In this document: positions 12,504-32,802 of the stretch, piece after piece
Layout: each line of letters begins with the position of its first letter
Position numbering within the stretch: position 1 is the first letter of the stretch
NCBI GenBank assembly: GCA_026396615.1
Contig: JAPLWK010000010.1
Location: forward strand, 133,916-197,915
Origin: a candidate division WWE3 bacterium
Lineage (GTDB): Bacteria; Patescibacteriota; WWE3; JAPLWK01
DNA length: 64,000 nt
Direction: 5' to 3'
The notes under the pieces: generated by a model
Told to the model about the DNA's origin: nothing
Seen by the model: the letters and a program-made list of their open reading frames with translations, nothing else
Database searches by the model: none
Position numbers and translations under genes: made by a program

Positions 12504-12511
12504 CCAATCTG

Positions 12512-12539
12512 TCATTCCGGGCTTGACCCGGAATCCAGA
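12512..12539 (-). repeat. GC-rich hairpin element, copy 1 (reverse orientation), upstream of uvrB
   Basis: Its reverse complement, CTGGATTCCGGGTCAAGCCCGGAATGAC, is identical to the copy at 30288-30315. 8-bp stem ATTCCGGG/CCCGGAAT. Confidence 0.5.
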
Positions 12540-12580
12540 AAATCTAACATAAATTTTTAATTAACAATTTAATCTGTTAC

Positions 12581-12609
12581 TGGATTCCGGCTCCGGGGCC
12601 GGAATGACG
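12581..12609 (+). repeat. GC-rich hairpin element, copy 2, ending ~11 nt before the uvrB ATG
   Basis: CTGGATTCCGGCTCCGGGGCCGGAATGAC. Stem ATTCCGGC/GCCGGAAT differs from copy 1 by a compensatory G:C to C:G swap. Confidence 0.5.
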
Positions 12610-12619
12610 TGTTTTATTT

Positions 12620-14701
12620 ATGGAATTCAAGCTTACCTCATCTTACAAGCCTGCCGGAGATCAGCCTCAGGCTATTAAGTCGCTATTAAGTAACTACAAA
12701 GCCGGACTTTCGGATCAGGTCTTACTTGGTGTTACCGGTAGTGGCAAGACTTTCACGGTGGCTAACGTTATCCAAGAAATTAAAAAGCCCACTTTAATTA
12801 TTTCGCACAACAAAACTTTAGCGGCCCAGCTGTATCAAGAATTTAAGGAGTTTTTTCCTAAAAATGCCGTGGAGTACTTTGTTAGTTACTACGATTACTA
12901 TCAACCGGAATCTTACCTCCCGGCTACTGACACTTACATCGAAAAAGATGCCGATATTAATGATGAAATTGATCGACTTCGTTTGCGAGCCACGGCGGCC
13001 TTAATGACGCGTTCGGACGTGATCATAGTGGCTTCCGTGTCAGCGATATATTCACTAGGTGATCCCGAAGAATATAGCCAGGCAATTTTAGAATTGAAAG
13101 TCGGATCAGCCACAACTTTACGTGCCCATGTTCTAAGTCGATTAATAGAAATGCATTATAATCGCAACGATTTTGAATCTAAAAGAGCGACTTTTCGCGT
13201 TAAAGGTGAAAACATTGAAGTTTGGCCGGCTTACGAAGATTACATTTTACGTTTGGAATATTTAGGGGAATCTTTATCTCGCATTTCCAAGCTTAATCCC
13301 ATTACTTTTGGGCAAATAGAACCTTTAAGTGAATTTGTACTTTATCCGGCCCGTCACTATGTAGCCGATCCGGAGACTTTTGATGAGGCTCTGGCGGCAA
13401 TTCAAGTGGATTTGGAGAAGCAACTTAAGTCGCTGGAAGGTCAAGGCAAGAAGCTTGAGGCTTATCGTTTAAAGCAACGCACTAAGTATGACTTGGAAAT
13501 GCTTAAAGAAGTCGGGTTTGTAAATGGTATTGAAAATTATTCGCGTTATTTTGACGGTCGGGCGCCCGGTTCGCCACCTTATACTTTACTTGATTTTTTT
13601 GCCCATCGTTTTGGTAAGGCTAGCTCTAAGGATTGGCTCCTAGTCGTCGACGAGTCCCACATTTCGATTCCCCAAATTCGGGGGATGTATAAAGGGGACC
13701 GCAGTCGCAAACAAACTTTGATCGACTTTGGTTTTCGGCTGCCATCGGCTTTGGATAATCGTCCTTTAGACTTTCCAGAGTTTGAAACTCGCATGCCACA
13801 AACTATTTATATGAGCGCAACGCCTAGTCCTTGGGAATTAACCAGGGCGACAGTGGCAGCCAGTGATTTGTCATCGCTGAGCGGTCAGAAAGCAACTTTG
13901 ACTCCAATTGTAGAGCAATTAATTCGTCCAACTGGCTTAATTGACCCCCAAATTACAGTTTTACCATCGAAAGACCAGATTAATGATTTACGATGTCGCA
14001 TTGAGGAAAGAATAAAAAATGGCCAGCGGGTCCTGGTTACAACTTTAACTAAAAGAATGGCCGAAGAATTATCTGATTATTTAAAGAATTTAAATATTAA
14101 AGTCACTTACCTGCATTCTGATATTCAAACTCTAGAGCGCAGCACCATTTTAGATGATTTACGACGTGGTAATTATGATGTCCTAGTTGGTATCAATTTG
14201 CTACGGGAAGGCTTAGATCTTCCAGAAGTGTCACTGGTCGCCATTCTTGACGCCGATAAGGAAGGTTTTTTGCGGAGTGAATCGGCTTTAATTCAAGTGA
14301 TGGGTCGGGCGGCTCGGCATTTACAAGGCGAAGTGGTCATGTACGCCGATAAAATTACTGATTCCATGCGACGAGCTATAGATGAGGTTGATAGACGACG
14401 GTCGATACAACTGTCCTATAATCAAGAACATAATATTACACCGGTGGGCATTACCAAGTCGATTCGCGATAAAATGGTGGAGTTTACGGCGGCCGAAATT
14501 GCCGAAAAATCTCACCCCACTGTATACAGTAAAAAAGGCGGCAAAGCTTCTTTAATCGACCTGGCTGATGTTCCGCCGTCTGAACGGAAGAAGTTTATTA
14601 AAGAGCTGGAACTAAAAATGCAAACGGCTGCCGAAGAGCTCAACTTTGAACTTGCCGCCCAAATTAGGGACGAGCTACTTGACATAAAGAAGAACCTCTA
14701 G
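12620..14701 (+). CDS. uvrB: Excinuclease ABC subunit B
   Basis: 693 aa. Walker A GVTGSGKTF, helicase motifs, and a C-terminal UVR domain (…ELNFELAAQIRDELLDIKK). Confidence 0.9.
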   Translation: MEFKLTSSYKPAGDQPQAIKSLLSNYKAGLSDQVLLGVTGSGKTFTVANVIQEIKKPTLIISHNKTLAAQLYQEFKEFFPKNAVEYFVSYYDYYQPESYLPATDTYIEKDADINDEIDRLRLRATAALMTRSDVIIVASVSAIYSLGDPEEYSQAILELKVGSATTLRAHVLSRLIEMHYNRNDFESKRATFRVKGENIEVWPAYEDYILRLEYLGESLSRISKLNPITFGQIEPLSEFVLYPARHYVADPETFDEALAAIQVDLEKQLKSLEGQGKKLEAYRLKQRTKYDLEMLKEVGFVNGIENYSRYFDGRAPGSPPYTLLDFFAHRFGKASSKDWLLVVDESHISIPQIRGMYKGDRSRKQTLIDFGFRLPSALDNRPLDFPEFETRMPQTIYMSATPSPWELTRATVAASDLSSLSGQKATLTPIVEQLIRPTGLIDPQITVLPSKDQINDLRCRIEERIKNGQRVLVTTLTKRMAEELSDYLKNLNIKVTYLHSDIQTLERSTILDDLRRGNYDVLVGINLLREGLDLPEVSLVAILDADKEGFLRSESALIQVMGRAARHLQGEVVMYADKITDSMRRAIDEVDRRRSIQLSYNQEHNITPVGITKSIRDKMVEFTAAEIAEKSHPTVYSKKGGKASLIDLADVPPSERKKFIKELELKMQTAAEELNFELAAQIRDELLDIKKNL

Positions 14702-14782
14702 TTATAATGCCCACAATATTCTAATCACAGGCAAGCGTTAATTAGACTTGCCGTTGTTATTATTACTACATCGGAGGCTCTC

Positions 14783-15040
14783 GTGGGTGGTCAAGCTCGT
14801 CATCCAGTGATCGCACAGAGAAGTTCTGGTTTCGTTCATAGTTCAGCGCAGGCATTTACAACCGCCTGGAACTACGTTCAAGATAAGCATCCTTGGGTTC
14901 CAACGGGGATGCTGCATCAAGGTGTTCCGTCGAAAGACCTGAATGCAAAAGCACTTAAAGCTTGGAACAGCCTTCCTAAAGACCAACAATGTGGTCAAGG
15001 GTTGGCGAAAAAGCTTAAGGGCAACTATCATATCAGTTAG
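14783..15040 (+). CDS. Hypothetical small protein (GTG start, strong SD) in the GC-rich uvrB-uvrA spacer
   Basis: 85 aa ORF. GGAGG sits 7 nt upstream of the GTG. Local G+C is visibly above the flanks. No recognisable domain. Confidence 0.3.
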   Translation: MGGQARHPVIAQRSSGFVHSSAQAFTTAWNYVQDKHPWVPTGMLHQGVPSKDLNAKALKAWNSLPKDQQCGQGLAKKLKGNYHIS

Positions 15041-15125
15041 TTGGTTAAACAGCCTGTTGGCAAGGGAAGGCTGTAATCTCAAATGTTCGCGAAAGATTCG
15101 ACAAAGTTTTCAGGAGAGATACATC

Positions 15126-15356
15126 ATGGGTTCCGCAAATAATTCAGGCAAAGTAGTAGCAAGTGTCAGATCGAGTTCTGTGGCGACCAAAGTAAATCCA
15201 ATGGCTTCGCCAAACTCTCAGAATGAATGTCCGCCCGAGGGCAGCATTTGTCCGAGTTGTGGAAAGGGTACTGTGCATTACGGTCGTTTTTCTCGTCGGC
15301 GTGTTTGCACACACTCCCAATGCGTCGTGAACTCGTACAGTATCTATCATTGCTAG
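15126..15356 (+). CDS. Hypothetical small zinc-ribbon protein
   Basis: An internal ATG of the 14943-15356 track ORF is preceded by AGGAGAG. It encodes 76 aa ending in CPSCGKGTVHYGRFSRRRVCTHSQC (C-x2-C…C-x4-C). Confidence 0.35.
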   Translation: MGSANNSGKVVASVRSSSVATKVNPMASPNSQNECPPEGSICPSCGKGTVHYGRFSRRRVCTHSQCVVNSYSIYHC

Positions 15357-15374
15357 TTAGCTTTGCGTAGGTTT

Positions 15375-15430
15375 GGCGGTGGAATTTTTCTCTACAGAGA
15401 GTTAAGTTTCACCGCCCTTTCATTTTTTTA
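15375..15430 (+). terminator. Terminator-like hairpin followed by a T-run
   Basis: GGCGGTG…CACCGCC stem (7 bp, large loop) followed by CTTTCATTTTTTT. Confidence 0.3.
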
Positions 15431-15473
15431 ATTTGAAATTTACAATTTAAAATTGAAAATTATACCTTTGTTA

Positions 15474-15502
15474 CTTGATTCCAGGTCTTGTCCCGGAATG
15501 AC
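15474..15502 (+). repeat. GC-rich hairpin element, copy 3 (degenerate), upstream of uvrA
   Basis: CTTGATTCCAGGTCTTGTCCCGGAATGAC. Same flanks (…GATTCC… / …CCGGAATGAC) as the other copies. One stem mismatch. Confidence 0.45.
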
Positions 15503-15564
15503 GTATCTGAGTGTGACCCTTTATAAATGCTTCAAAATATAGTAGAATACCAGATCGTCATCTT

Positions 15565-18450
15565 ATGGAAGAACTCATTATTCGCGGCGCCAGAGAGCAT
15601 AATTTAAAAAACGTCGATTTAACTATTCCCAAAAATAAATTAATAGTCTTTACCGGCGTTTCCGGCAGTGGTAAGTCCTCTTTGGCCATGGATACTATCT
15701 ATGCTGAGGGGCAGCGCCGTTACGTAGAATCTTTGTCTTCCTACGCCCGCCAATTCTTAGGCGTCATGGATAAGCCCGATGTCGACCTTATCGAAGGACT
15801 TAGCCCCGCAATTGCGATTGATCAAAAGTCGGCTTCTCATAACCCTCGTTCCACCGTTGGCACTATCACCGAAGTCTACGATTATCTTCGTCTTTTATAC
15901 GCTCGCGTAGGCCATCCCCATTGCCCCAATTGCGGTCGAGAAATTTCTCGGCAAACCATCGATCAAATTAGCGATGGTATCCTCGCTTTAGGGCCGGGGC
16001 GCTACATGATCATCTCCCCAATCGTAAAAGACCGCAAAGGCGAATATACGCATCTTTTTGAGAATCTGCGAAAGCAGGGGTTTGGCCGGGCCAGGGTTGA
16101 TGGGCAAGTGATAAGTTTGGATAGCGATTTTGATCTTATCAAAACAAACAAACACACTATTGAAGCCGTAATTGATCGTTTAGTGCTGGAAAAGAAAGTC
16201 TCTAAAGATACTATTACTCGAATTCGCCAGTCGGTAGAAACGGCTTTAAAGTTGGCTGATGGCGTGGCCATTGTTTCTCAAGTAACCGATAAAGCCTTTG
16301 AATTTCCGGAATCCCCGAAAAAGATGGAGGATCATCTATTTTCGGAGCGTTTTGCTTGTCCATTTTGCAATATTTCGCTGCCGGAACTGGAGCCCCGCAG
16401 TTTCTCTTTTAACTCACCGCATGGTGCCTGTCCTAAATGTCAGGGCCTAGGAACAGAACTTAAAATTAATCCGGCCATTATTTACAACCCCGATTTAAGC
16501 GTTCGTGAAGGCGGCATTTTTCCGTGGGCTAATGTAATGGAACATGAAACTTGGAGCGGCAGACTCCTCGAAACAGTGGCCAAAACTAATAATATTGACT
16601 TAAGTGTTCCGATTAGCCAGCTTTCGGATAGCCAACTACACTTAATCCTCTACGGCACCGGAAAAACAGCTTATGCCGTGAACGGTAAAAATCGATTTGG
16701 TAAAGAACGCACTTACGACACTACTTTTGAAGGCATTATTCCCAATTTAGAGCGCCGTTATAAAGAAACCGATTCCGATTATATTCGTCGGGAAATCGAG
16801 CGCTACATGGTTAAAGAGCTTTGTCCTTTATGTAAAGGGGTGCGGCTTAAAAAAGAAGTGCTGGGAGTGACTATTTTAGATTTAAATATTGCCGAGGCTA
16901 GCAATTTAACCATTAAAAAGTTTTTAGATTGGTCGGCTGATTTTAAAACTTTAAATAGTCGCGAACAAGAGATCGGGAAGGCGATTATTAAAGAAATAGA
17001 TGCCCGCTTAAATTTTCTTCTCGATGTTGGACTTGATTATTTAACCATTGACCGGGCCGCCAATACCCTCGCCGGAGGGGAAGCCCAGCGAATTAGGTTG
17101 GCTTCGCAAATTGGCTCCGGACTTTCCGGGGTTCTTTACGTCCTTGATGAGCCGTCAATTGGCCTTCATCAGCGTGATCAGGATCGACTTATTCAAACTC
17201 TCAAGCGCCTGCGGGACCTTGGAAACACGGTCATTGTCGTCGAACATGACGAGCAGACGATGCTTGAGTCCGATTACATTGTTGATTTTGGGCCAGGGGC
17301 TGGGGAGCACGGTGGCGAAATTTTGGCTCAAGGTACCCCAGACGAAATTAAGGCCAACAAAAAATCGATTACCGGGGCTTATCTTTCCGGCCGTCGTCAA
17401 ATTACCGTTCCCAATTTCAATCAAGAAGAAATTGACGTAAAAGTTAAGCCGTCATCTCGCGAGTTAGTCCTCATGAATGCCAGTCATAACAACCTAAAAA
17501 ACGTGACTATTAAAATTCCCTTGGCCAAATTGGTCTGCGTCACTGGTGTCTCAGGATCGGGAAAATCATCCTTGATTAATGAAACGCTATTGCGCCAACT
17601 GCGCCAAGAATTTAATCTTAAAAATGAGGAAAAACCTGGCGCTAACGATGGCATTACAGGCCTGGAGTACATTGATAAGGTGGTTGACATTGACCAGTCC
17701 CCAATCGGTCGAACGCCCCGCAGCAACCCTGCCACTTATACTAAAGCTTTTGATGAAATTAGAGAATTATTCGCGTCAACCCGAGAATCTCAATTACGCG
17801 GTTACAAATCAGGCCGTTTTAGTTTTAATGTTAAAGGTGGTCGTTGCGAAGCCTGCAAGGGTGACGGCCAAATTAAAATTGAAATGCAATTTATGCCGGA
17901 TATTTATATTGATTGTGAAGTATGTGATGGTAGGCGTTACAATCACGAAGCCTTGGAAATTGAGTATAAAGGCAAAAATATCTCCCAAGTTTTAGATATG
18001 ACGATTGATGAAGCGGCGATATTTTTTACCAACCATCCCGGTATAAAAAATAAACTGGATACTTTGCAGGACGTGGGTTTGGGCTACGTGCATTTAGGTC
18101 AGCCCGCACCAACTTTATCTGGCGGAGAGGCCCAAAGGATTAAACTGGCATCTGAGCTTTCGCGTCGCCAAACCGGCAAAACCCTGTATATTTTGGATGA
18201 GCCCACCACCGGCCTCCATTTTGCTGATTTAGAGCGTTTAATCGCCATTTTTAAGCGACTGGTTTCTTACGGCAATTCTGTCATTGTTATTGAACATAAT
18301 TTAGACGTAATTCGTTTTGCCGATCACATTATCGATTTGGGTCCGGAGGGTGGAGTGGGTGGTGGTCGGGTCATTGTCACTGGTACAGTTGCCGAAGTGG
18401 TGGCTTGCCAGGAAAGTTGGACTGGAAAATATCTAAAAGCGAAGTTATAA
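15565..18450 (+). CDS. uvrA: Excinuclease ABC subunit A
   Basis: 961 aa. Two ABC ATPase modules (GVSGSGKSSL twice; LSGGEAQR twice) and zinc-finger cysteines (CPNCG, CPFC…CPKCQG, CEACKGDG). Confidence 0.9.
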   Translation: MEELIIRGAREHNLKNVDLTIPKNKLIVFTGVSGSGKSSLAMDTIYAEGQRRYVESLSSYARQFLGVMDKPDVDLIEGLSPAIAIDQKSASHNPRSTVGTITEVYDYLRLLYARVGHPHCPNCGREISRQTIDQISDGILALGPGRYMIISPIVKDRKGEYTHLFENLRKQGFGRARVDGQVISLDSDFDLIKTNKHTIEAVIDRLVLEKKVSKDTITRIRQSVETALKLADGVAIVSQVTDKAFEFPESPKKMEDHLFSERFACPFCNISLPELEPRSFSFNSPHGACPKCQGLGTELKINPAIIYNPDLSVREGGIFPWANVMEHETWSGRLLETVAKTNNIDLSVPISQLSDSQLHLILYGTGKTAYAVNGKNRFGKERTYDTTFEGIIPNLERRYKETDSDYIRREIERYMVKELCPLCKGVRLKKEVLGVTILDLNIAEASNLTIKKFLDWSADFKTLNSREQEIGKAIIKEIDARLNFLLDVGLDYLTIDRAANTLAGGEAQRIRLASQIGSGLSGVLYVLDEPSIGLHQRDQDRLIQTLKRLRDLGNTVIVVEHDEQTMLESDYIVDFGPGAGEHGGEILAQGTPDEIKANKKSITGAYLSGRRQITVPNFNQEEIDVKVKPSSRELVLMNASHNNLKNVTIKIPLAKLVCVTGVSGSGKSSLINETLLRQLRQEFNLKNEEKPGANDGITGLEYIDKVVDIDQSPIGRTPRSNPATYTKAFDEIRELFASTRESQLRGYKSGRFSFNVKGGRCEACKGDGQIKIEMQFMPDIYIDCEVCDGRRYNHEALEIEYKGKNISQVLDMTIDEAAIFFTNHPGIKNKLDTLQDVGLGYVHLGQPAPTLSGGEAQRIKLASELSRRQTGKTLYILDEPTTGLHFADLERLIAIFKRLVSYGNSVIVIEHNLDVIRFADHIIDLGPEGGVGGGRVIVTGTVAEVVACQESWTGKYLKAKL

Positions 18451-18456
18451 AGTTGT

Positions 18457-19977
18457 ATGCTCAAAGGATTAGCGATTATAACCCTGTCAACCCTTTTGCT
18501 ATTAGTTGGGTCAACTGACGTAAAAGCAGCCGACTCTAAATTTTCTACTTCTTACAAAACTACCTATGACGTTGATATTAGCGGTTTAACGACAGTCACT
18601 TCCGAGATTAGTTTAACCAATAAATCCGCCAATTTTTACGCTTCCAATTACGTTTTAACGTTAAGTTTTCCGCATATTTTAGAAGTTACTGCCTATGATC
18701 GCCTGGGTAATTGTCCGGTGACTCTTAATGGCTCAGAAATTAAGGTCCTGTTCAATGATAAAGTTGTTGGTTTAAATAGCATACTTCATTGGACTCTAAT
18801 TTATAAAACTCCCGATCTGGCAATAAAAAAAGGCCGGATTTGGGAAGTTGATCTTCCTAAAGTTGAAGGGAGTATAGATCTAGCCGATTACGTTACGGTT
18901 CTTAAGGTGCCCCAAAGCTTTGGTGACGATGCCCAAATGGCCAATACCGCAATTAGTAGCGGGGTAGCTGGTAGTAAAAACTTCTATGTTTTCTCTAAAA
19001 ACTTATTACTTAATCAAGGTGTCGCCGCTGTTTTTGGCGATTATCAAGTTTTTAAATATACTCTTAAGTATCATTTAAAAAACCTAAACCTACTACCGCA
19101 TTTTGAAGAAATTACTCTACCTCCAGGTGTTGCTAATTATCAAGAAACTTTTATTACTAGTTTATCACCCCGTCCCATTTCGTCACGAGTTGATAGTGAC
19201 GGTAATTTGCTGGCCAAGTATTTTTTGTGGTGGGGTCAAGATTTAGAAATCACTTTAGACGGAGAGGCCAAAGTTTATAATCGTCAAATTAATCCTTTTG
19301 TTGGAGGTAATGTTACGGCCATAACCTCTAACCTAAAATATTTGACTAATGCGGCAAGTTTTTGGGAGGTAACTGATCCGATTATTAAAAAGATTGCTTC
19401 TGATTTATATAATCCTACTAAAACCGTTTCTCAAAATGCTCAAAATATTTACACTTATGTCGTGGCCACTCTAAAATATAATAATGCCAAGGGTTTTGAT
19501 AATCGTTTAGGAGCCGTAGCAACTTTAAAAACTCCCGATAACGCCGTATGCACTGAATTTTCAGATCTCTTTGTGGCACTGGCTCGGTCAAATGGTATTC
19601 CGGCTCGGGAACTCGAGGGCTACGCTGCGACTAATCAAGATAATCGACCAATTTTAAATGACGTGCTACACGCCTGGGCTGAGTATTATGATCCGGTCTT
19701 TGGTTGGGTGGCCGTTGATCCAACGTGGGGCAATACCGCTAAAACTGATTTCTTCACGCATCTTGACGCTAACCATTTGGTCTTTGTCATACATGGTGTG
19801 TCGCCGGTATCACCCGCTCCGGCCGGAGCTTTTAAACTGGATATTACAGAAAAGGATCAAGTAGCGGTAGTTTTCGCGGATGCGGTCACTACAGATGCGA
19901 CTAAAGTAGTCCCACTTTCCGTCGACAATTCTTTGGGGACTAAAATTATTAGGTTTTTGGCTGGCATTAGTAATTAA
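18457..19977 (+). CDS. Secreted transglutaminase-like (Cys-protease fold) domain protein
   Basis: Signal peptide. C-terminal Cys…His…Asp triad context (…NAVCTEFSDLF…HAWAEYYD…WVAVDPTW). 6-bp and 3-bp gaps to uvrA and uvrC. Confidence 0.55.
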   Translation: MLKGLAIITLSTLLLLVGSTDVKAADSKFSTSYKTTYDVDISGLTTVTSEISLTNKSANFYASNYVLTLSFPHILEVTAYDRLGNCPVTLNGSEIKVLFNDKVVGLNSILHWTLIYKTPDLAIKKGRIWEVDLPKVEGSIDLADYVTVLKVPQSFGDDAQMANTAISSGVAGSKNFYVFSKNLLLNQGVAAVFGDYQVFKYTLKYHLKNLNLLPHFEEITLPPGVANYQETFITSLSPRPISSRVDSDGNLLAKYFLWWGQDLEITLDGEAKVYNRQINPFVGGNVTAITSNLKYLTNAASFWEVTDPIIKKIASDLYNPTKTVSQNAQNIYTYVVATLKYNNAKGFDNRLGAVATLKTPDNAVCTEFSDLFVALARSNGIPARELEGYAATNQDNRPILNDVLHAWAEYYDPVFGWVAVDPTWGNTAKTDFFTHLDANHLVFVIHGVSPVSPAPAGAFKLDITEKDQVAVVFADAVTTDATKVVPLSVDNSLGTKIIRFLAGISN

Positions 19978-19980
19978 TTT

Positions 19981-21264
19981 ATGGTTCCTGCAGAATTCGC
20001 CACTTTACCAAAAACTCCCGGCGTCTATATTTTTAAAGATAAAGCCGGTCATATTTTGTACGTTGGGAAAGCGATTTCTCTAAAAGACCGGGTCTCCTCG
20101 TATTTTCAAGGTAGCCTTGATTTGGGTCCGAAAACCAGAGCTTTAGTAGCTAAGATTATTTTTATTGAACATGTCGACGTCGGTTCGGAACTGGAAGCGT
20201 TGCTCCTTGAAGCCGAGCTTATTAAGAGGCATCGGCCGCCTTATAACATTAGCCTCAAAGATGATAAGAGTTATCAGTATATTGTGATAGAAAAGTCAGA
20301 AAAGTTTCCTCGAATAAGTACCACCCATAATAAAGGTAATTTAAACACAAACTGGTTATATTTCGGGCCGTATCCTGAAGGGCGAACGGTGCGTCAGGTG
20401 GTCAAGGAACTCCGTCGGATCTTCATGTTTCGAGATTGTGGGGCTTCCAAGTATAATCGCTACCAAAATTTGAAGCGACCGTGTTTGTTTGGTGACATTA
20501 ATTTATGTGCGGCCCCTTGCGTCGGCCGCATTTCCGATGTCGACTACAACAAAAATATCAATCGGGTTGTAAAGTTTTTATCTAGTGGTCAAAAAGATCC
20601 TCTCATTCAGGAGATGAAAGGTGAGATGTCAAAATTGTCTGAAAATCAGGAGTTTGAAGCGGCCTCACAGCTTCGTGATCAAATCAGCCGTTTTGAATAC
20701 ATCACCCAGACTTTTAGGCCGGCCTCAGAGTTCCTTATTAACCCTAATCTCCAAAGTGATCAAAATAACGCGTCCGTGACAGATCTTTTAACTGTTCTCG
20801 GTCTTTCTGAAACGTCAAATCAACGCTTAGAGTGCGTCGATATTTCCCATCTTGGAGGAAGCCAAACGGTAGGGAGTTTAGTCGTTTTTAACGGTGGTCG
20901 ACCGGACAAAACTCAGTATCGACGCTTTCGAATCAAGTCTGTTCGCGGCATTTCCGATGTTGATTCTATATCAGAAGTTTTGACGAGACGTTTTAAGCAT
21001 GAAGAATGGCCTCTCCCGAGAGTTTTGATCATCGACGGCGGGAAGCCGCAAGTGGCGGCCGCAAAAAAAGTCCTTAAAGATTTAAACTTGACTTCAAAAC
21101 TAGAACTAATAGGGCTTGCCAAGCAATTTGAGACTATCGTACGCTCAGACGGAACGTCCCTTCGAATTCCAAGAAACCGACCGGCCATTCGACTGCTGCA
21201 AAGCTTACGTGACGAAGCCCACCGATTTGCCAATTCTTACCGTAAAAAGATAACTAATCTATAA
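19981..21264 (+). CDS. uvrC: Excinuclease ABC subunit C (short form without C-terminal HhH region)
   Basis: GIY-YIG N-terminus (PGVYIFKDKAGHILYVGKA), UVR domain (…EFEAASQLRDQISRFEYI), endonuclease domain (…LIIDGGKPQ…). Only 427 aa. Confidence 0.8.
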   Translation: MVPAEFATLPKTPGVYIFKDKAGHILYVGKAISLKDRVSSYFQGSLDLGPKTRALVAKIIFIEHVDVGSELEALLLEAELIKRHRPPYNISLKDDKSYQYIVIEKSEKFPRISTTHNKGNLNTNWLYFGPYPEGRTVRQVVKELRRIFMFRDCGASKYNRYQNLKRPCLFGDINLCAAPCVGRISDVDYNKNINRVVKFLSSGQKDPLIQEMKGEMSKLSENQEFEAASQLRDQISRFEYITQTFRPASEFLINPNLQSDQNNASVTDLLTVLGLSETSNQRLECVDISHLGGSQTVGSLVVFNGGRPDKTQYRRFRIKSVRGISDVDSISEVLTRRFKHEEWPLPRVLIIDGGKPQVAAAKKVLKDLNLTSKLELIGLAKQFETIVRSDGTSLRIPRNRPAIRLLQSLRDEAHRFANSYRKKITNL

Positions 21265-21357
21265 TATAGATCGCTATCTATACTACAGGTTTGTTGGCGA
21301 GTCGATAAAGTGCTAATATATCGTTAATAATCGGTTAATTCAAGTAAGGAGGAAGAA

Positions 21358-21525
21358 ATGTTCCAGCAATTGGATGCAACCGCACAGGTCTTGTTTGAAG
21401 TTGTCGTTAGCGTCGTTCGCGTTTTTGTCATTGGCGGCTTTGTGCTTGTCTTCGCGTTGATCAGCGGTCTAATTGTGACCGAATTAATCAATCCGCAGAC
21501 ATTCTCCGATTATCGCCATTGATGA
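21358..21525 (+). CDS. Hypothetical 55-aa membrane peptide (not in the ORF track)
   Basis: ATG preceded by TAAGGAGGAAG. Translation MFQQLDATAQVLFEVVVSVVRVFVIGGFVLVFALISGLIVTELINPQTFSDYRH contains one TM helix. Confidence 0.3.
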
Positions 21526-21570
21526 CAACCTTTTTATAAATCCCGTCAGCGAAGGCATAATTTAAATGCT

Positions 21571-22008: not shown

Positions 22009-22009
22009 C

Positions 22010-22234
22010 ATGAATTTAAATTTAGCCTTTAGCATCACCGAAATCGTTTTATCCGTAATTATAACCGGCTTGATTCTAATTCAAGCCAAAGGGACGGGCT
22101 TAGCTCGGTCTTTTAGCGGGGTCGGTGGTTTTTACAGTAGTAAGCGGGGGCTGGAAAAGATAGTTTTTGTTGCCACTATAGTGTTCTCGGTCGTTTTTGT
22201 AATAGTTATAATTGCACATCTGCGTTTTAAGTAA
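22010..22234 (+). CDS. secG: Preprotein translocase subunit SecG
   Basis: 74 aa from the internal ATG. Two TM helices with a Gly/Ser-rich loop (QAKGTGLARSFSGVGGFYSSKRG). The track ORF starts at a TTG at 21998. Confidence 0.55.
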   Translation: MNLNLAFSITEIVLSVIITGLILIQAKGTGLARSFSGVGGFYSSKRGLEKIVFVATIVFSVVFVIVIIAHLRFK

Positions 22235-22249
22235 TATTTCGGTACGCCC

Positions 22250-23683: not shown

Positions 23684-24419
23684 TCTTAACTAATTTAATA
23701 AAAATACTGGGGCCGAAATATAATTTTCCTAAAGGTTTGTGAACAAGATTATCAAGAGAACTTAAAACCCTACCGGGAATAATCTTTTTAATAACCGGGC
23801 TTCTAAAATTAGAAACGCTTAAAGTTGCCACCACCTTCCAATTTAGATCATTTAGAATTTTTAAAATATGCTCAGGGTGAAAGTTTAGAAATACGCCGGA
23901 ATCAGCAGTCAATTGATTATAAGGGGTTTTATCGGCGGCGAAGTGTCGACCGTGTTTTAGCAGCGCTTTAAAATGATTTTTATTGGCAAACTCTAGAATA
24001 AAAGTGCTGCCGGGGGCCATTACGCGGTATATTTCTTTTAAAGCCAGTTCCGGTTCTTCCAAATGGTGCATCACTCGAATCATCATACCGCTATCAAAAC
24101 TATTATCCGGGAACGGTAATTTATAAACGTCACCGCGGACGTAAGTAACCTGGTCATCTTTTAGAAATTCGCGAGCTTTGGTTAAATTTTCGGTTGAGTA
24201 ATCAAGTAACACAGCGCTTTGACAGCGATTAAGCAGGTCTTTAAGATTACGGCCAAAGCCACCGCCAACATCAATAAATTTTTGGCACTTTTTAGGCACT
24301 AATTTTTTAATAGCCTGCTGCTCGGCTAAATTTTCGTAATCACGGCCCGTCCAGTATTTTTGATAATTAAAGTGGGTAGAATCGTAATCAGCCAAGTCCA
24401 TGTTAGAGTTTAGTAACAC
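23676..24419 (-). CDS. Class I SAM-dependent methyltransferase
   Basis: Motif I FIDVGGGFGRN and an acidic loop LLDYS. 247 aa. Confidence 0.65.
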   Translation of the reverse strand: MLLNSNMDLADYDSTHFNYQKYWTGRDYENLAEQQAIKKLVPKKCQKFIDVGGGFGRNLKDLLNRCQSAVLLDYSTENLTKAREFLKDDQVTYVRGDVYKLPFPDNSFDSGMMIRVMHHLEEPELALKEIYRVMAPGSTFILEFANKNHFKALLKHGRHFAADKTPYNQLTADSGVFLNFHPEHILKILNDLNWKVVATLSVSNFRSPVIKKIIPGRVLSSLDNLVHKPLGKLYFGPSIFIKLVKTI

Positions 24420-25374
24420 CGGTAACCGCGGTCATTGTTTTATTTCTTTCATCATATAATCCTTGTAAACGCACTTTATCATTTACCTTCAGGTTCTGGA
24501 TTAAGGTGCTACTGGTTGTATCCACAATGATGGTAAGGTTATTTATCAACGTGAAACTGAGTGCCTTGCCGGTAATAGCCGAAACACTGCCGGAAAGATA
24601 GGTGTTACGAGTGGTATTGGTCAAATCGCGGATGGCATAGGCGTCACCACCAATGGCGGCCACCTCGACTTCGTGTCCGGTGGTGAGGTCAACAATATTA
24701 ATATCAGACCCATACTTTCTAATTAACTTGGTGAAGGTGTTAATGTTGAAGACTTTTGACTCACCTTTAGTTGTTGTCACAGTAATAGTTTTGGCTTGAA
24801 TTTCTGAAACAATGCCTTGAAAAGTGTCAATGGTAATATTTCCCAGATCTGCAGGGGCGGCCAGCACATATGCCGATTCGATTTTTTCATTGTTGCTATT
24901 ATCTAGAGCCGTCACTACTAATTCATTGGGACCTATTTTAAGTGGTGCGATCATATTAAAAGACCCATCGTCAGCAATCGTTACTTCCTTTTCATTAAGG
25001 AGGACTTTGGCGCCGCTCGTTGTCTGACCGCGCAGTGGTTCCTGCATATTGGTAGTAATCAATTTATCGGTCGGATTAATTAAAACTAAAAATAACGGTT
25101 GGGCCGAGGTGGTAGCTTCCGGGGTTTGCCAAGGTTGATCCGCTTTTGTTGCGGCGGGCCCTGAAGCCTGTTTGGCCTGCGGTAAATTTAAACTTTTAGA
25201 TTGAATATTTATTTTAATCGGATTAAGAGTATTAATAACGAATAGCGACAACGCAATAGCAGCAACAATTGCTAAAATAGTGGCTATTATCATGGCGTGT
25301 TTAGACATCATATCCGTCTTCATGATACCAGATTTTGACTCTTGCGGGAGCCATAATTTTTTGCGATCATACAA
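24403..25374 (-). CDS. Secreted/membrane-anchored protein with a beta-rich (Ig-like) region
   Basis: N-terminal TM/signal segment (the true start is probably the internal MKTDMMSKH…). No catalytic motif. Confidence 0.4.
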   Translation of the reverse strand: MYDRKKLWLPQESKSGIMKTDMMSKHAMIIATILAIVAAIALSLFVINTLNPIKINIQSKSLNLPQAKQASGPAATKADQPWQTPEATTSAQPLFLVLINPTDKLITTNMQEPLRGQTTSGAKVLLNEKEVTIADDGSFNMIAPLKIGPNELVVTALDNSNNEKIESAYVLAAPADLGNITIDTFQGIVSEIQAKTITVTTTKGESKVFNINTFTKLIRKYGSDINIVDLTTGHEVEVAAIGGDAYAIRDLTNTTRNTYLSGSVSAITGKALSFTLINNLTIIVDTTSSTLIQNLKVNDKVRLQGLYDERNKTMTAVTGVTKL

Positions 25375-25748
25375 CTGTGCCAGAAAACGCCGAAATAACC
25401 GCCATGATAAACAAGGCCTTTGAGCTGATTGAGAAGTCCAAAGAGGATATAAAAGTGATAAAGAATCAATTAGATGAAGTTTTAGCTTCGGATCCGGTCT
25501 ACACGGACGCTCAAAAAGAAGTGGAAGTGGCTCGTGAAGCTAAAGCGATGGCTTCTCAAAAGGCGGAAGCCAACACCACCGTTACCGGCTTAATGAACGC
25601 CTTAAAAGAGCGAAAAATAGAATTACGTGATTACAAAGATTCCTTGTCAGCTTCGTTGGTCGAATACTACAAAGCTACCGGGTCCACCGAAATTACTACT
25701 AGTGACGGTAAAACCTACACTTTCTCTTTCTCGGCTCGCCTTTCCTAA
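25335..25748 (+). CDS. Hypothetical coiled-coil protein
   Basis: 137 aa. The likely true start is the internal Met (MINKAFEL…). No domain recognised. Confidence 0.3.
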   Translation: MTLAGAIIFCDHTTVPENAEITAMINKAFELIEKSKEDIKVIKNQLDEVLASDPVYTDAQKEVEVAREAKAMASQKAEANTTVTGLMNALKERKIELRDYKDSLSASLVEYYKATGSTEITTSDGKTYTFSFSARLS

Positions 25749-25776
25749 GTCGTCTGGTTGCTGTTAAAATGGCCTC

Positions 25777-26874
25777 ATGAGTTCAGTTTGGGGGTTGGTT
25801 TTTTCGACTTTACTTGGTCTGTTTGGGGGCCATAATCAGGTTCTAAGTGCTTCGGTTGGTTCTTGGGCACTTCCAAACAATAAGTTCGGTTTATATATCT
25901 ACTCAGTCAACGATTATGCTTCGGCAGCGGCCACACTCGTTAATAGTAACGGAGGAGACTGGGGGTACGTCCTCGTCCCTTACGCGGTTTACGATACGGA
26001 CATAGAAAAGTGGCGCGGCTTCTTTTTAGAACTTCACAAAGACAATTTAATTCCCATAATTCAACTGTGGGATCTTCGGAACTCTGAGGATACGCAGCAC
26101 GCGGCCGAGTTTTTGGATTCACTACCTTGGCCGACGACTATCCACTATGTTAGCGTTTACAATGAGCCCAACGACAGTCGTTTCTGGTACAACAAAGTCG
26201 ATCCTGCGGGCTACGCTGCGGTTCTAGATCAAACAATTACCACTTTTAAAAAACAAAATTCAGCTTTCTTTATGTTAAACGGGGCCTTTAATGCTTCGGC
26301 CAGAAACGGCAATGGTTACATGGACGAAGTTGATTACGTCACAGCGATGAATAAAGCAGTTCCTGGAATTTTTAAGCGGCTTGATGGTTGGGCGTCGCAT
26401 CCTTATCCACAGCCAAACTTTTCGGGATCGCTGGCAGACACTGGTCGCGACAGTATTAAAGCTTACGATTGGGAATTGTCACTTTTGAAAGATAAGTTCG
26501 GGGTCAATAATTTACCGGTCTTCATTACCGAAACCGGTTGGGCCCACCAAGAAGGCGTCACTCCGGACTATTCATTTTACACCGCTGACCAAACGGCCGC
26601 TTTAATCAAAGAAGCTTACGAACAGGTTTGGTTGCCGGACCCTCGCATTATTGCCGTCACTCCGTTTACTATTAAATACAGTCATCCCGAAGATCACTTT
26701 AATTGGCTGGACCCTGAAAATAAGCCATATCCACAATTTTACGCTATTCAACAAATGCCGAAAGTTGCCGGGAAGCCTACGGAGTCGCCCTGGTATCTTT
26801 TTTATCCTGATATTCGGCAGATAATAATTGATTTATTTGACAGAGCTACTCTTAGGGTCAATACTAATATGTAG
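25777..26874 (+). CDS. Putative clan GH-A glycoside hydrolase (GH5-like)
   Basis: Acid/base motif …VYNEPND… and nucleophile motif …VFITETGWA…, in the order expected for a (beta/alpha)8 retaining glycosidase. Confidence 0.5.
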   Translation: MSSVWGLVFSTLLGLFGGHNQVLSASVGSWALPNNKFGLYIYSVNDYASAAATLVNSNGGDWGYVLVPYAVYDTDIEKWRGFFLELHKDNLIPIIQLWDLRNSEDTQHAAEFLDSLPWPTTIHYVSVYNEPNDSRFWYNKVDPAGYAAVLDQTITTFKKQNSAFFMLNGAFNASARNGNGYMDEVDYVTAMNKAVPGIFKRLDGWASHPYPQPNFSGSLADTGRDSIKAYDWELSLLKDKFGVNNLPVFITETGWAHQEGVTPDYSFYTADQTAALIKEAYEQVWLPDPRIIAVTPFTIKYSHPEDHFNWLDPENKPYPQFYAIQQMPKVAGKPTESPWYLFYPDIRQIIIDLFDRATLRVNTNM

Positions 26875-27360
26875 ATGCGTAAACTTCTGCCTGTTGTTAT
26901 TTTATTTGCTATCGTTTCCTTGGGATTGGTCGTCAAAGCCCAAGCTTCCGTTCTGACTCTAACCGACATTGGTACTGTTTCCACCGCTGGTCATATTTAT
27001 AATCACTGGTGGTATACGGTCGCTAACCCGACGCTTAAGGGAATGGCCGATCCTTCAGCCTCAGTATCCGTCACTATCGACAGTGTTGCTAATACCGCGA
27101 CCGCAGATGCTTCAGGGTTGTGGACACTCTCGACGTCAACTTTGACGATAGGTGATCATGCTGTTGTGATTAGTTCCGGTACATCGACAGCACTTAGCTT
27201 CACTTTAACCATTGGTAGTAGTAGTCCTTCAGGAAATGGCGCGACTCCTTCCGGTACTCCTAACACCGCTAGTCCTTTATATACCGCTGGAGTTGTTTTG
27301 GCTTCCGGTTTAGCCTTATTGATTGGATTTAAAACGCTCAAAAGCTCTAAGGTAATTTAA
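26875..27360 (+). CDS. Cell-surface protein with C-terminal TM anchor
   Basis: Signal peptide, Thr/Ser-rich beta region, C-terminal hydrophobic segment plus KSSKVI. Confidence 0.4.
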   Translation: MRKLLPVVILFAIVSLGLVVKAQASVLTLTDIGTVSTAGHIYNHWWYTVANPTLKGMADPSASVSVTIDSVANTATADASGLWTLSTSTLTIGDHAVVISSGTSTALSFTLTIGSSSPSGNGATPSGTPNTASPLYTAGVVLASGLALLIGFKTLKSSKVI

Positions 27361-27361
27361 T

Positions 27362-29068
27362 TTACCAACTCCCACCACCGCCGCCTCCGCCTCCGCCTCC
27401 ACCACTAAAACCACCACCGCCAGAGAATCCGCCGCCTCCGAAACCACTGCTAAAGCCGGAACTGCTGCGAGTGCTGGTGTAAGGGGCGGCTGAAAATCCG
27501 GTCGTGGCCCTATCAAACGAATTTAAAGTATTCGCAAGTATTAGTGCATTGAACAATTGACCACTGCTGTCGCCGTACCAAGTCACGTCAGTTGGAATTG
27601 ACAGGTCTTTAAAGCGACTGGCCCACTCGCGGGTCACACCAAAAGCCACAGCGTAAGGTAGTAGTTTTTCAAAAAAGTACCAATTCTTCTCTTGAAAATT
27701 GAGCTCTTTTTCTTGAGAAACTAGAAATCTCTTTAAAGCTTCGGCCTCCTCTTTCTTCTGGGCTCCCAGAGCCGTCTTTTTTGGCATTACTCTCGAGAAA
27801 ATTAGAAGCACAATTCCCAGCGGAATGTTTATACCGGTAAATAAAATTGCACTTCCAAAACCGGCGTAAAGTTTACGTACAGTGTCGGGGTTACCAGCGA
27901 ATAGGCCTTCCGCAGTTAAGTCGCTGTATAGGCTTTTCTTGGCTTGATTAACAGTTGTGTAGAAACTGCTTTTTAAATCACTAGTTGAGACTTCCGTGTC
28001 TGTGGCAAATATTCCGTCATAGATTATAGTTTCATACGGCCGAAAAGATCCAAACCCGTTTTTAGGCTCAGTTTTTGTAAATGTAAAATCACTACCATCT
28101 TTTTTAATCGTTAAAAAACCACGAATGGCCAGCGACACTATGGTGGCCGAAATATCACGGCTATCGACTTGCTCCGAAGTTAGTAGTCCCGTTTCCGCCG
28201 GCCTCAAAGGCTCACCGTCAATATGCTTTGGAGGATCGAACAGGACCCGAGGAGCGCCAAGAACTTTAGGATCCCTTCCAAATAAAAACCAGGCGATGCC
28301 GACCAGAATCGGCACTAAAATGTACCAGAGGGCAAAGAGAATTGGTAGTATTGGTGACGATGTGACATTGTTATTGTTTGTTTGACTGGTGGTTCCGAGT
28401 GGCGTTGGGGCGAGCGGTGTCACTAAACCAGTTGGAAAGCCGAAAACAACAGTTAAACCTTCATAAGTGTTAAGCGATTGGGTTGTTGTAAAATTGGCGC
28501 CGTCAGAGGTAGTTAAAGTCGTGCAGTTTTTAGCGGTTGACTTAGTGGTTCCGGTATAACATGTGGCATTAAGATTACTGGAAGTGGTGGGCAGTGTCAC
28601 CGTGACTGAAGCGTTTTGGATTGGGACTTGCCAGGCGTTACCAACGGGACTCCAGTAAAGCTCGTCGTGGTCACTAAAGTTTTGAATAGCTCCCGATAAA
28701 GTGTAATTAATTTGATATTGCTGGATTCCAGTCAGCGTTATATTGGGGTCGCCGATCTTCAAGTAAATCTGATCACTGCTGCTTTGATCGCTGTACGACG
28801 CTCCCGAAACTGAAATGTTTGACGCTGTCACTAAGTAATTACTTCCATCTTGATTAGTGATTTTTAACGGGATATTCCTAAAAATACCATGCTTGGGAGT
28901 TGTACCTAGGTCATAAATGATATCTTCGGTTACATTAATTGTCCCGTTACTTTGAATGGCCCAGTCAGCATGGAATGAATTAATGTTTTCAGCGGCCCTG
29001 GCTTTAGTGACTACTAAGATTGGAAGAATAAGACTTGCGACGATGATTGAAAGTATTAGACGTTTCAT
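27362..29068 (-). CDS. DUF2207-family membrane protein with Gly-rich C-terminal tail
   Basis: Signal peptide, large extracytoplasmic domain, TM helices, and a terminal …GFGGGGFSGGGGFSGGGGGGGGGGGSW tail characteristic of DUF2207. Confidence 0.6.
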   Translation of the reverse strand: MKRLILSIIVASLILPILVVTKARAAENINSFHADWAIQSNGTINVTEDIIYDLGTTPKHGIFRNIPLKITNQDGSNYLVTASNISVSGASYSDQSSSDQIYLKIGDPNITLTGIQQYQINYTLSGAIQNFSDHDELYWSPVGNAWQVPIQNASVTVTLPTTSSNLNATCYTGTTKSTAKNCTTLTTSDGANFTTTQSLNTYEGLTVVFGFPTGLVTPLAPTPLGTTSQTNNNNVTSSPILPILFALWYILVPILVGIAWFLFGRDPKVLGAPRVLFDPPKHIDGEPLRPAETGLLTSEQVDSRDISATIVSLAIRGFLTIKKDGSDFTFTKTEPKNGFGSFRPYETIIYDGIFATDTEVSTSDLKSSFYTTVNQAKKSLYSDLTAEGLFAGNPDTVRKLYAGFGSAILFTGINIPLGIVLLIFSRVMPKKTALGAQKKEEAEALKRFLVSQEKELNFQEKNWYFFEKLLPYAVAFGVTREWASRFKDLSIPTDVTWYGDSSGQLFNALILANTLNSFDRATTGFSAAPYTSTRSSSGFSSGFGGGGFSGGGGFSGGGGGGGGGGGSW

Positions 29069-30192
29069 CCTTTAATTTTATGCTTTGTGAGAGCATCTGT
29101 CACGGCGGATATCTTTGGGACTATAAAGTCAACGAGACGACGAAAGAGACTACTGACTCCCAGTAGAAATGGAATGTAGATAAAAGTGGCTAGGCCGGTG
29201 GGGAGAGTTTTATAAAGAAAATCAAAACGCAGCATGATTGGCCAGTGCAGCAAAAATGTTTCGTAAGAATATTCGCCAAAGATTTTTAAGAATCGACTTT
29301 CAAAATTAATTACAAAAAATAATCCCAAAATACCAATGACTGTTCCCAAACTGCTAAATTGTTCAAGATAAGTAGCGGGGTTTCCGACGTTTGAATGCAC
29401 CGCAAAATAGACAAATATACTTGCGGAAGCTATAGCCAGTAGGACCTTTAAATAGATACTGCTAAATATTTTAGCTGTCCAGTTTTTAAGGGATGTTTGG
29501 GCAAGAGTTGCCAGCAGCATGCCAAGAGGAAAAGCGATAAAATGAATTTTATAAAGTCCCAGAACTTCAAAAGAACTAGGCCAATTAATTATAAGTAGTA
29601 GGAAAATAATCAATAAAGTTATAAATGGGGCCAAAACCTTAACTTTAATTTTCATTACCCATGGGAAAATTAAATAAAAAATTAACAGAAAAGTGAAGTA
29701 CCAAAAGGGCGAATCTAGATTAGCGTATAAATTGGCTTTGGGAAAAAATCCAGAGAAACTACTCACAATTTCATTAGTACTGTAACTTAAATTCAAGAAA
29801 AGCCGTTCCGCAATTATAATAATACCAAGGGCAAACCAGGCCGGAATATATATTTTTAATAGACGCTTTTTATAAAACTCGATTGGCGATAATGGATTTT
29901 TAAGTTGAGAAATTGTGAGGCCGAGTCCCGACAAAACTAAAAATAAATTAACGGCGACACCACCAAAGCCAGAGAGGGGTACTAAAAATCGGTTGTCTGG
30001 TACCAAAAAATAACCAACGTGGGAAAAAATAACCATTAGAATAGCGAGCCCTTTTAACTCTGACACTTTGTTTAAAGAGAGATTTAAGGAGTCAGCTGAT
30101 TTTTTGAATCCCAAGGCCAGGATTAACAAAATGAACAAGCCGCCAAAAATTATCGTCTGGGTTTCGGGGTTACTTGATGTTAAAAAAGGCAC
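29065..30192 (-). CDS. Acyltransferase family 3 membrane protein
   Basis: Ten predicted TM helices. …LKGLAILMVIFSHVGYF… fits the acyl_transf_3 N-terminal signature. Confidence 0.6.
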   Translation of the reverse strand: MPFLTSSNPETQTIIFGGLFILLILALGFKKSADSLNLSLNKVSELKGLAILMVIFSHVGYFLVPDNRFLVPLSGFGGVAVNLFLVLSGLGLTISQLKNPLSPIEFYKKRLLKIYIPAWFALGIIIIAERLFLNLSYSTNEIVSSFSGFFPKANLYANLDSPFWYFTFLLIFYLIFPWVMKIKVKVLAPFITLLIIFLLLIINWPSSFEVLGLYKIHFIAFPLGMLLATLAQTSLKNWTAKIFSSIYLKVLLAIASASIFVYFAVHSNVGNPATYLEQFSSLGTVIGILGLFFVINFESRFLKIFGEYSYETFLLHWPIMLRFDFLYKTLPTGLATFIYIPFLLGVSSLFRRLVDFIVPKISAVTDALTKHKIKG

Positions 30193-30239
30193 GTGACTAT
30201 TTTAACATCAGATAGGCCTAAAAAAGCAATACCGAAGAT

Positions 30240-30268
30240 TTGACGAAATAGTAAAGAGCGATCATAAT
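30240..30268 (+). promoter_or_regulatory. Putative rarA promoter (TTGACG-17-CATAAT)
   Basis: Read directly. It places hairpin copy 4 inside the 5'UTR. Confidence 0.35.
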
Positions 30269-30287
30269 AATAGTATCTAGTCTTTTA

Positions 30288-30315
30288 CTGGATTCCGGGT
30301 CAAGCCCGGAATGAC
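30288..30315 (+). repeat. GC-rich hairpin element, copy 4, ending 12 nt before the rarA ATG
   Basis: CTGGATTCCGGGTCAAGCCCGGAATGAC, identical to the reverse complement of copy 1. Confidence 0.5.
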
Positions 30316-32719: not shown

Positions 32720-32802
32720 TCTTCCTTGCATAAATCCCTAGCCTTTAGGTTATAAATAAAACGACAAGGAGAAGCTACAAGCTTTTTATCTGTTAGTAGG
32801 AC

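Follow-up and report, generated by a model that had tools for sequence, protein, structure and literature searches.

A 64,000-nucleotide stretch of contig JAPLWK010000010.1 (hereafter, the window), from a metagenome-assembled genome (MAG) of a candidate division WWE3 bacterium (Patescibacteria), carries four copies of a GC-rich hairpin next to the repair genes uvrB, uvrA, and rarA, and we conclude that these hairpins are very likely recently inserted repeats of the NTS/dRS3-like, ‘Ssn-related’ and REP-like kind rather than a conserved operator or RNA switch. A preliminary description of this DNA had offered three readings, namely a regulon-specific operator, a 5′ untranslated region (5′UTR) RNA switch for a damage response separate from LexA, and a repair-gene-associated REP-like element. 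Among these, the REP-like element survives, while the operator and the switch are set aside by syntenic relatives that lack the element and by unrelated contexts in which it recurs; the association with repair genes holds only inside the 64-kb window.

The Neisseria Transformation Sequence (NTS), CGTCATTCCCGCGMAVGCGGGAATCYRG, is an oriented 28-nt hairpin repeat that includes the older dRS3 repeat ATTCCC-N8-GGGAAT, and many phyla harbor NTS-like repeats, the ‘Ssn-related motifs’ (SRM), together with SsnA, a small nuclease made up of one GIY-YIG domain (CDD cd10448), whose gene the repeats often flank (Chenal et al. 2025, PMC11893778). The hairpin is bound by SsnA in single-stranded DNA and in no other form, and the cut falls a few nucleotides to its 5′ side; SRM repeats build up between genes, commonly clustered or in inverted pairs, by a possibly transposon-like route (PMC11893778). 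Judged from its sequence, the window repeat appears to be a CCGG-stem variant of this NTS/SRM type in a WWE3 genome and not a new regulatory system; by analogy, its single-stranded form would be the substrate of an Ssn-type nuclease, and it may have spread by a similar, possibly transposon-like, route.

Structure and family of the hairpin repeat

The four copies, and the spacer between the first two, are located in the window as follows:

Copy 1: 12511-12538, + strand (NTS-forward on +), GTCATTCC GGGCTTGACCC GGAATCCAG; starts 8 nt past the lexA stop codon.
Spacer: 12539-12579, no strand; 41 nt, AT-rich, between the inverted copies 1 and 2.
Copy 2: 12580-12608, - strand (NTS-forward on -), CTGGATTCCGGCTCCGGGGCCGGAATGAC as read on the + strand; ends 11 nt before the uvrB ATG (12620).
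Copy 3: 15474-15502, - strand, CTTGATTCCAGGTCTTGTCCCGGAATGAC, degenerate (CTTGATTCCAGG...CCCGGAATGAC); 62 nt before the uvrA ATG.
Copy 4: 30288-30315, - strand, exact reverse complement of copy 1; its end is 12 nt short of the rarA ATG (30328).

All four hairpins of the preliminary description are present, and the distances of copies 2 and 4 from their start codons and the single stem mismatch of copy 3 are read in the sequence as described there; the coordinates of copies 3 and 4 had been right, while copies 1 and 2 had been placed one base too high (12512-12539 and 12581-12609). Read in the NTS orientation, each copy consists of GTCATTCC, inner stem, loop, inner stem, and GGAATCCAG, and the + strand sequence of copy 1 is GTCATTCCGGGCTTGACCCGGAATCCAG. 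The 5′ flank GTCATTCC directly precedes the palindrome in four of four copies, and the 3′ flank GGAATCCAG is found in copies 1, 2, and 4 and is replaced by GGAATCAAG in copy 3, which has this one flank change in addition to its stem mismatch; the loop between the half-sites is 5 or 6 nt long, depending on the copy. The exact 10-mer CCGGAATGAC occurs in the window only at the four copies, a 27-nt pattern of the hairpin was matched in none of 100 shuffles of the window, and copies 1 and 4, which lie 17.7 kb apart, share 28-nt identity (97% complementary over 33 nt). All four copies are intergenic, and copies 2–4 are oriented alike relative to their downstream gene. Folded as RNA, copies 1, 2, and 4 form hairpins of 8–9 bp at -14 to -16 kcal/mol (copy 1, -16 kcal/mol, z -4.1) and copy 3 folds weakly (-10.1 kcal/mol, z -1.6); the 98-nt doublet made up of copy 1, spacer, and copy 2 (12511-12608) can alternatively form a single long hairpin at -45.2 kcal/mol (z -6.3).

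What these copies have in common with NTS and SRM repeats is a length of about 28 nt, an orientation given by asymmetric ends (GTCATTCC...GGAATCYRG), a palindrome with an ATTCC/GGAAT core, a stem of 7–9 bp and a variable loop, and a multi-copy intergenic occurrence, in clusters and inverted pairs, in very different genomes. The (C)GTCAT 5′ flank and the ATTCC...GGAAT hairpin of 7–9 bp are both there, as is the 3′ GGAATCYRG end in copies 1, 2, and 4. The inner stem and the loop differ from those of the NTS, with CCGG(G/C), i.e., CCGGG/CCGGC, in place of CCCGCG. Differences from the Neisseria repeats also include the host (a WWE3/Patescibacteria MAG), the number of copies (four visible), and the neighbors, which are repair genes in the window, whereas membrane-protein genes are the noted NTS neighbors in Neisseria (PMC11893778).

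Outside the window, a scan of viral contigs with the pattern TGGATTCCGG-N4-10-CCGGAATGAC recovered at least 164 exact copies in at least 120 stretches of unrelated context, where we estimate that fewer than one chance match would be expected in the collection for 20 specified bases. The viral copies listed have flanks with a G+C of 0.33–0.70, and some contigs hold 6–12 copies in less than 10 kb (up to 12 in 8.5 kb). The idea that the element is restricted to the fronts of repair genes therefore does not hold, and the compensatory stem change reported for the window gains a different meaning: the swap of the innermost pair from G-C to C-G between copies is real, but the same pair is Watson-Crick in 159 of the 164 viral copies listed, among at least 164 (C-G 112, G-C 34, A-T 10, and T-A 3), so that covariation is a general property of the family, as expected of an element recognized as a hairpin. 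The commonest loop variants among the copies listed, parsed by hand, fit the published SRM string. An Ssn-like small GIY-YIG gene was found by regular expression or phmmer in none of the 120 viral loci listed or the other loci fetched, and phmmer matched only its query.

The lineage-specific extended pattern (TTAC plus the element) had no match in the viral contigs, and TTAC as an IS608-like target is not supported, the flanks in other contigs being mostly TCC, TAC, or CCC; inverted doublets as the rule, as in REPINs, were likewise rejected, with direct and inverted pairs in a ratio of 16:4 among the viral loci listed.

The element was found at none of 80 uvrB loci of reference genomes, and among 80 metagenome uvrB loci exact NTS-type copies occurred in only two contigs, L234 and L279, both unrelated to the window. 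In L279 the same flanks surround the stems CCCGCG, CCCGTG, and CCTATG within one repeated unit, and this diversity within constant flanks implies that the inner stem is free to vary. The unit itself is a composite repeat of about 120 nt, present twice (2300-2420 and 3490-3610), that consists of a conserved leader, an NTS-forward hairpin, a purine-rich spacer of about 30 nt, and an NTS-reverse hairpin; the two flank a dephospho-CoA-kinase-like gene downstream of polA, and one is read through by a spurious 67-aa open reading frame (ORF) containing ...LDSRFRGND.... In L234 (985-1008 and 1135-1150), an NTS-type hairpin, GATTCCCGCCTTCGCGGGAATGAC on the gene’s strand, precedes uvrB by 177 nt and is oriented like the window copies, with a classic GAAC-N4-GTTC LexA box nearer to uvrB than the hairpin, a single case that carries no statistical weight.

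REP, BIME, and REPIN repeats, like the sub-terminal hairpins of IS200/IS605, are short palindromes outside genes, rich in GC and with a conserved end that is asymmetric, and are recognized as single-stranded DNA hairpins; PMC11893778 discusses them as well. As in those families, the window hairpins are found alone or as inverted pairs, in the spacers between genes and at operon junctions; the head of the window element is GTCAT, not GTAG, and the enzyme of the NTS/SRM relatives is a GIY-YIG nuclease, that of REP/REPIN a Y1 transposase. No Y1 (RAYT/TnpA) transposase domain was found by Pfam among the window proteins.

When a 231-nt stretch was searched against Rfam, the doublet aligned end to end with the 151-nt model of WsnRNA46 (RF02625; 35.6 bits, E 5e-6), a score below the gathering score of 65.3 and thus below the threshold for membership. 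The two share an inverted pair built from a GUCAU...CCAG hairpin, a spacer of AAAA plus A/U-rich sequence, and a CUGG...AUGAC hairpin, and they differ in the inner stems. Wolbachia is among the SRM-rich genomes (PMC11893778), and its repeat of the same architecture has been reported as an expressed small RNA (PMC12796755). The uvrA and rarA leaders, with the single copies 3 and 4, gave no relevant match in Rfam E-value scans, and at gathering thresholds the window yielded only tRNAs, with no riboswitch or leader.

Insertion sites and syntenic relatives

Metagenome and Logan contigs with the gene order pfkB-lexA-uvrB-(small ORF)-uvrA were used as relatives; among reference genomes there was no close one (best UvrB match, 58%), and RarA homologues at 73–78% identity were all from Patescibacteria. 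The LexA of the window is identical to a protein annotated in a candidate division WWE3 MAG. The junction of lexA and uvrB compares as follows (LexA identity to the window, then the spacer):

L289: LexA 95%; lexA and uvrB overlap (ATGA), 0 nt.
L290: LexA 81%; 6 nt.
L203: LexA 77%; 4 nt.
L202: LexA 76%; 16 nt.
L291: LexA 77%; roughly 110 nt, AT-rich, no hairpin.
Window: 116 nt, 98 of them copy 1, the 41-nt spacer, and copy 2.

The whole 12511-12608 block was found at the lexA-uvrB junction of none of these five relatives, and no copy was found upstream of uvrA in L202, L203, L290, and L291. At rarA, two further contigs, L282 and L283, share the gene order of the window (SBP, methyltransferase, DUF2207, acyltransferase, rarA) and keep the rarA promoter TTGACG-17-CATAAT, with 6 nt from the -10 box to a GTG start as against 59 nt in the window, and the hairpin element was not found at this promoter in either. 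Conservation at orthologous promoters, which an operator would have called for, is therefore not seen at the lexA-uvrB, uvrA, or rarA sites of the syntenic relatives examined, and all three sites are accordingly lineage-specific insertions; the doublet is younger than the split from L289.

Short-read contigs of the same organism point in the same direction. De Bruijn assemblers break at sequences that are repeated or polymorphic in a sample, and one Logan contig (L001) stops with the final base of copy 1 (12538), a second (L286) begins exactly where copy 2 does (12580), and two more from two runs (L287 and L288) end at the same base inside copy 4, with the other ends of all four inside genes. 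These breaks at the copies suggest, indirectly, further copies or polymorphism in the sample.

The AT-rich spacer of L291 (10616-10727) is also rich in TTTCAAATT/AAATTTAAAATTT motifs and resembles the stretch upstream of copy 3 in the window (15423-15465; ATTTGAAATTTACAATTTAAAATT); the two may belong to a second intergenic element of the lineage, an AT-rich repeat or promoter module.

The genes around the copies are the following:

lexA: 11889-12503, + strand; canonical lexA, the gene just upstream of copy 1.
uvrB: 12620-14701, + strand; UvrB, separated from lexA by the 98-nt hairpin doublet.
uvrA: 15565-18450, + strand; UvrA, followed by a transglutaminase-like gene and uvrC.
uvrC: 19981-21264, + strand; carries the only GIY-YIG domain of the window.
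rarA: 30328-31476, + strand; rarA/mgsA-type AAA+ ATPase gene.

UvrB, UvrA, and the RarA/MgsA-type ATPase were named correctly before, and no other gene in the window is preceded by a copy. UvrC is short (427 aa), with GIY-YIG, UVR, and RNase H-like endonuclease domains in Pfam and no C-terminal helix-hairpin-helix found, and its gene lies 3 nt after the transglutaminase-like gene in a uvrA-transglutaminase-uvrC operon.

Placement relative to promoters differs from copy to copy. Copy 2 stands in an operon spacer, where its hairpin and a GACGTGTTTT tail look like a terminator, and the loop of copy 1 together with the spacer makes a promoter-like site, TTGACC-16-TAACAT (12523-12550); no Shine-Dalgarno sequence was found in the 11 nt before the uvrB ATG. 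At uvrA, the proximal promoter-like site is TTTATA-17-TAGAAT; copy 3 precedes its -35-like box by 18 nt and is thus probably not in the mRNA. Copy 4 belongs to a region of divergent promoters, where it is preceded by the -10 box of the rarA promoter, TTGACG-17-CATAAT, which we located at 30240-30268 as previously described, and followed by the ATG. The consensus promoter-scan matches at the hairpins are weak (9 of 12).

Alternative readings and the repair genes

Several observations weigh against the view of the hairpins as recently inserted NTS/SRM-type repeats. Of the 35 intergenic regions in the window that are 25 nt or longer, five precede repair genes (lexA, uvrB, uvrA, rarA, and dinB), and all three element-bearing regions are among these five; under random insertion the hypergeometric probability is 10/6545 (about 0.0015), a post hoc figure that rests on three events and on repair genes that are clustered. 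This co-location is not explained by a purely neutral picture. In addition, no target-site duplication is recognizable at the junctions compared with relatives, and no transposition mechanism can be read from the insertion junctions. The published SRM string, HGTCWYN(0-2)YYVSBRHN(0-5)WNVSBRGN(0-2)RNCYNB, has no exact match in the window, each copy missing it by one position; with one substitution allowed (at a loop position for copies 1 and 4, which then match) it gives 8 window matches, with about 5.5 expected by chance, and is therefore unspecific. A small GIY-YIG (Ssn-type) gene was found in the 64-kb window neither by regular expression nor by phmmer with a GIY-YIG protein of L282.

The alternative that fares best, which we nevertheless consider unlikely, is exaptation, i.e., that NTS-like insertions at repair genes were retained as useful in this lineage. 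They might possibly serve as a LexA-independent uvrB promoter, as an RNase III or stability hairpin by which the uvrB mRNA is uncoupled from that of lexA, or, through Ssn-type cutting of incoming single-stranded DNA, as a modulator of recombinational replacement of repair genes. Such uses would fit the non-random placement in the window, the TTGACC-16-TAACAT site formed by the copy 1 loop and the spacer, the terminator-like hairpin and T-tail at copy 2, and the fold of the doublet (-45 kcal/mol, z -6.3), as well as the expression of the Wolbachia repeat as a small RNA (PMC12796755) and the non-random clustering of Neisseria NTS around particular genes, with modulation of transformation (PMC11893778). 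However, the statistic concerns three sites only and is post hoc, copy 3 is already degenerate, which suggests that no selection acts on it, the promoter matches reach only 9 of 12 consensus positions, and no Ssn gene was seen in the window. We regard as quite unlikely the narrower possibility of domestication, in which a few NTS-like hairpins were placed or retained specifically at uvrB, uvrA, and rarA as a newly recruited cis element. If this were true, uvrB could, for example, have been uncoupled from LexA control, or the loci could be marked for an Ssn-type single-stranded DNA nuclease during DNA uptake or recombination, and a repeat family would have been caught being domesticated into a repair-gene module in a bacterium of the candidate phyla radiation (CPR).

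It is very unlikely, in our view, that the hairpin is the cis element of a LexA-independent damage regulon, either as a regulon-specific operator or as a 5′UTR RNA switch, with a dedicated DNA- or RNA-binding factor. The copies do adjoin only uvrB, uvrA, and rarA in the window (with the same post hoc probability), copies 2–4 keep one orientation to their downstream gene, and the compensatory change preserves pairing, but that covariation is family-wide, and the characterized members of the family are recognized as single-stranded DNA (PMC11893778). Moreover, the element is at the orthologous sites of no syntenic relative, including the one with a 95% identical LexA, and the sequence abounds in genomes and contexts unrelated to this one (at least 164 viral copies). 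Within the window its position relative to promoters is not constant, dinB and uvrC have no copy, and a loop of 5 or 6 nt, and hence a variable half-site spacing, is unusual for a dimeric operator; Rfam gave no riboswitch or leader match.

LexA itself appears to have a more suitable site elsewhere, and a LexA box at the hairpins was rejected. LexA operators (SOS boxes), like the hairpins, adjoin the classic SOS genes uvrA and uvrB and lexA, but the window hairpins, unlike such operators, are not in relatives and have variable half-site spacing and asymmetric flanks. The candidate operator is the following:

lexA promoter TTGACA-17-TATATT with the direct repeat TTCGTAT-N4-TTCGTAT: 11854-11882, + strand; candidate LexA operator.

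This promoter, with 11 of 12 consensus matches, lies in the 39-nt pfkB-lexA spacer and is overlapped by the direct repeat, and both are kept in all six loci that cover the region, namely the window, L289 (~612-650), L290 (~7283-7320), L291 (~9966-10000), L203 (4170-4212), and L202 (530-571). In full the repeat is (C)TTCGTAT-N4-(C/G/A)TTCGTAT, i.e., CTTC-N7-CTTC, a direct-repeat type reminiscent of the alphaproteobacterial GTTC-N7-GTTC, and it was found nowhere else in the window. Promoter and repeat are only 7–9 nt upstream of the lexA ATG, and the lexA message is therefore near-leaderless. On this sequence evidence the direct repeat is a better candidate for the LexA operator than the hairpins. 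Because uvrB is translationally coupled to lexA in the relatives, it stands behind the lexA promoter there, and the hairpins, which bear no resemblance to the direct-repeat site, are not needed to explain a control of SOS type.

That the hairpins are unrelated to one another, being ordinary intrinsic terminators or look-alike chance palindromes, has next to no probability: copy 1 does follow the lexA stop codon and copy 2 does have a T-rich tail, but the identity of copies 1 and 4 over 28 nt at a distance of 17.7 kb, the lack of matches in shuffles, the conserved non-palindromic flanks, the place of copy 4 between divergent promoters, where one would not expect a terminator, and the presence of the family in other contigs speak against it.

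Neighboring repeats, cis effects, and significance

The window and its relatives contain other repeats and mobile DNA. The C-terminal 144 residues of RarA have two coding copies, 75% identical to each other (in rarA, 30328-31476, and in a fragment at 40096-40539), and these 3′ duplicates bracket about 9 kb (31020-40540 region) of lower GC and strong AT skew, with a large serine recombinase gene (38204-39949) at its end. Both junctions of this segment share ...AAGTATG(A/C)G(A/G)GCC, and it looks like an integrated mobile element that was inserted in rarA and brought a replacement 3′ end. Farther downstream, the gene of a Y-family polymerase (DinB/IMS) is broken up, by a frameshift or as a pseudogene, and reads as two ORFs that overlap (IMS 42370-43194 and IMS_C 43179-43616), and upstream of it neither the hairpin element nor the TTCGTAT repeat is present. 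A second, unrelated GC-rich palindromic repeat, GGACGGGGCATGCCCCGTCC(TCAACC...), occurs at 43607-43664, 51749-51786, and 51809-51861, i.e., in the dinB-dus spacer and in a long non-coding stretch (51711-52988), and two of its three copies form an inverted pair. Two further repeats were noted: a 45-nt one (56922-56966 and 59251-59295; 84% identical) contains a perfect 18-bp palindrome, CTGTACATATATGTACAG, and precedes an ORF upstream of an AbiEii toxin gene and a cupin gene, where it is possibly an operator, and a separate 46-nt one (56738-56783 and 58233-58278) has copies that are 98% identical.

L282, one of the relatives compared at rarA, has a 97-aa single-domain GIY-YIG gene (6736-7029) directly after an apparent tRNA 3′ end (...GGTTCGACTCCAAGCTCCCCAGCCA), flanked by a 15-nt direct repeat, CAAGCTCCCCAGCCA (6688-6702 and 7040-7054). 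The arrangement (6620-7055) suggests a small mobile GIY-YIG cassette at a tRNA gene; the only PDB relative of the protein is the uncharacterized UPF0213 protein BH0048, and no NTS-like repeats were found within 18.7 kb of the gene.

Coming back to the reading of the hairpins as recent NTS/SRM-type insertions, we propose that the copies arrived after the split from the relative with a 95% identical LexA. An inverted doublet of 98 nt would have come between lexA and uvrB, which had overlapped before; at rarA, one copy, as part of about 53 additional nucleotides, would have entered the stretch from the -10 box to the start codon; and one copy, now decaying, would have come to sit ahead of the core promoter of uvrA. 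The repair genes would then be affected, if at all, through a side effect in cis. At lexA-uvrB, the insertion would have removed the translational coupling of uvrB to lexA and placed a terminator-like hairpin with a T-tail and the promoter-like TTGACC-16-TAACAT between the two genes; at rarA, a nearly leaderless message would have gained a leader with a hairpin 12 nt ahead of the AUG, and stable hairpins would have been added to both the uvrB and the rarA leaders.

Correia elements of Neisseria and ERIC-type miniature inverted-repeat transposable elements (MITEs) are small insertions in 5′ regions and operon spacers that can add promoters, terminators, and RNase III-sensitive hairpins. The effects proposed here are of the same kind, and they are plausible by analogy with what is known for REP, ERIC, and Correia elements, although the window elements are much shorter (28 nt; 98 nt for the doublet) and have neither the terminal inverted repeats of the Correia type nor a TA target duplication.

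The case calls for caution, since a hairpin that stands out before three repair genes, with a covarying stem, is here most probably a promiscuous and recently inserted repeat and not a regulon signal. It would also place NTS/SRM-type repeats in a CPR (WWE3) genome, with insertions dated to after the split at 95% LexA identity that may serve as a natural experiment on how such repeats perturb expression. The finding would become much more interesting if it were true that the copies of the full genome are confined to repair genes.

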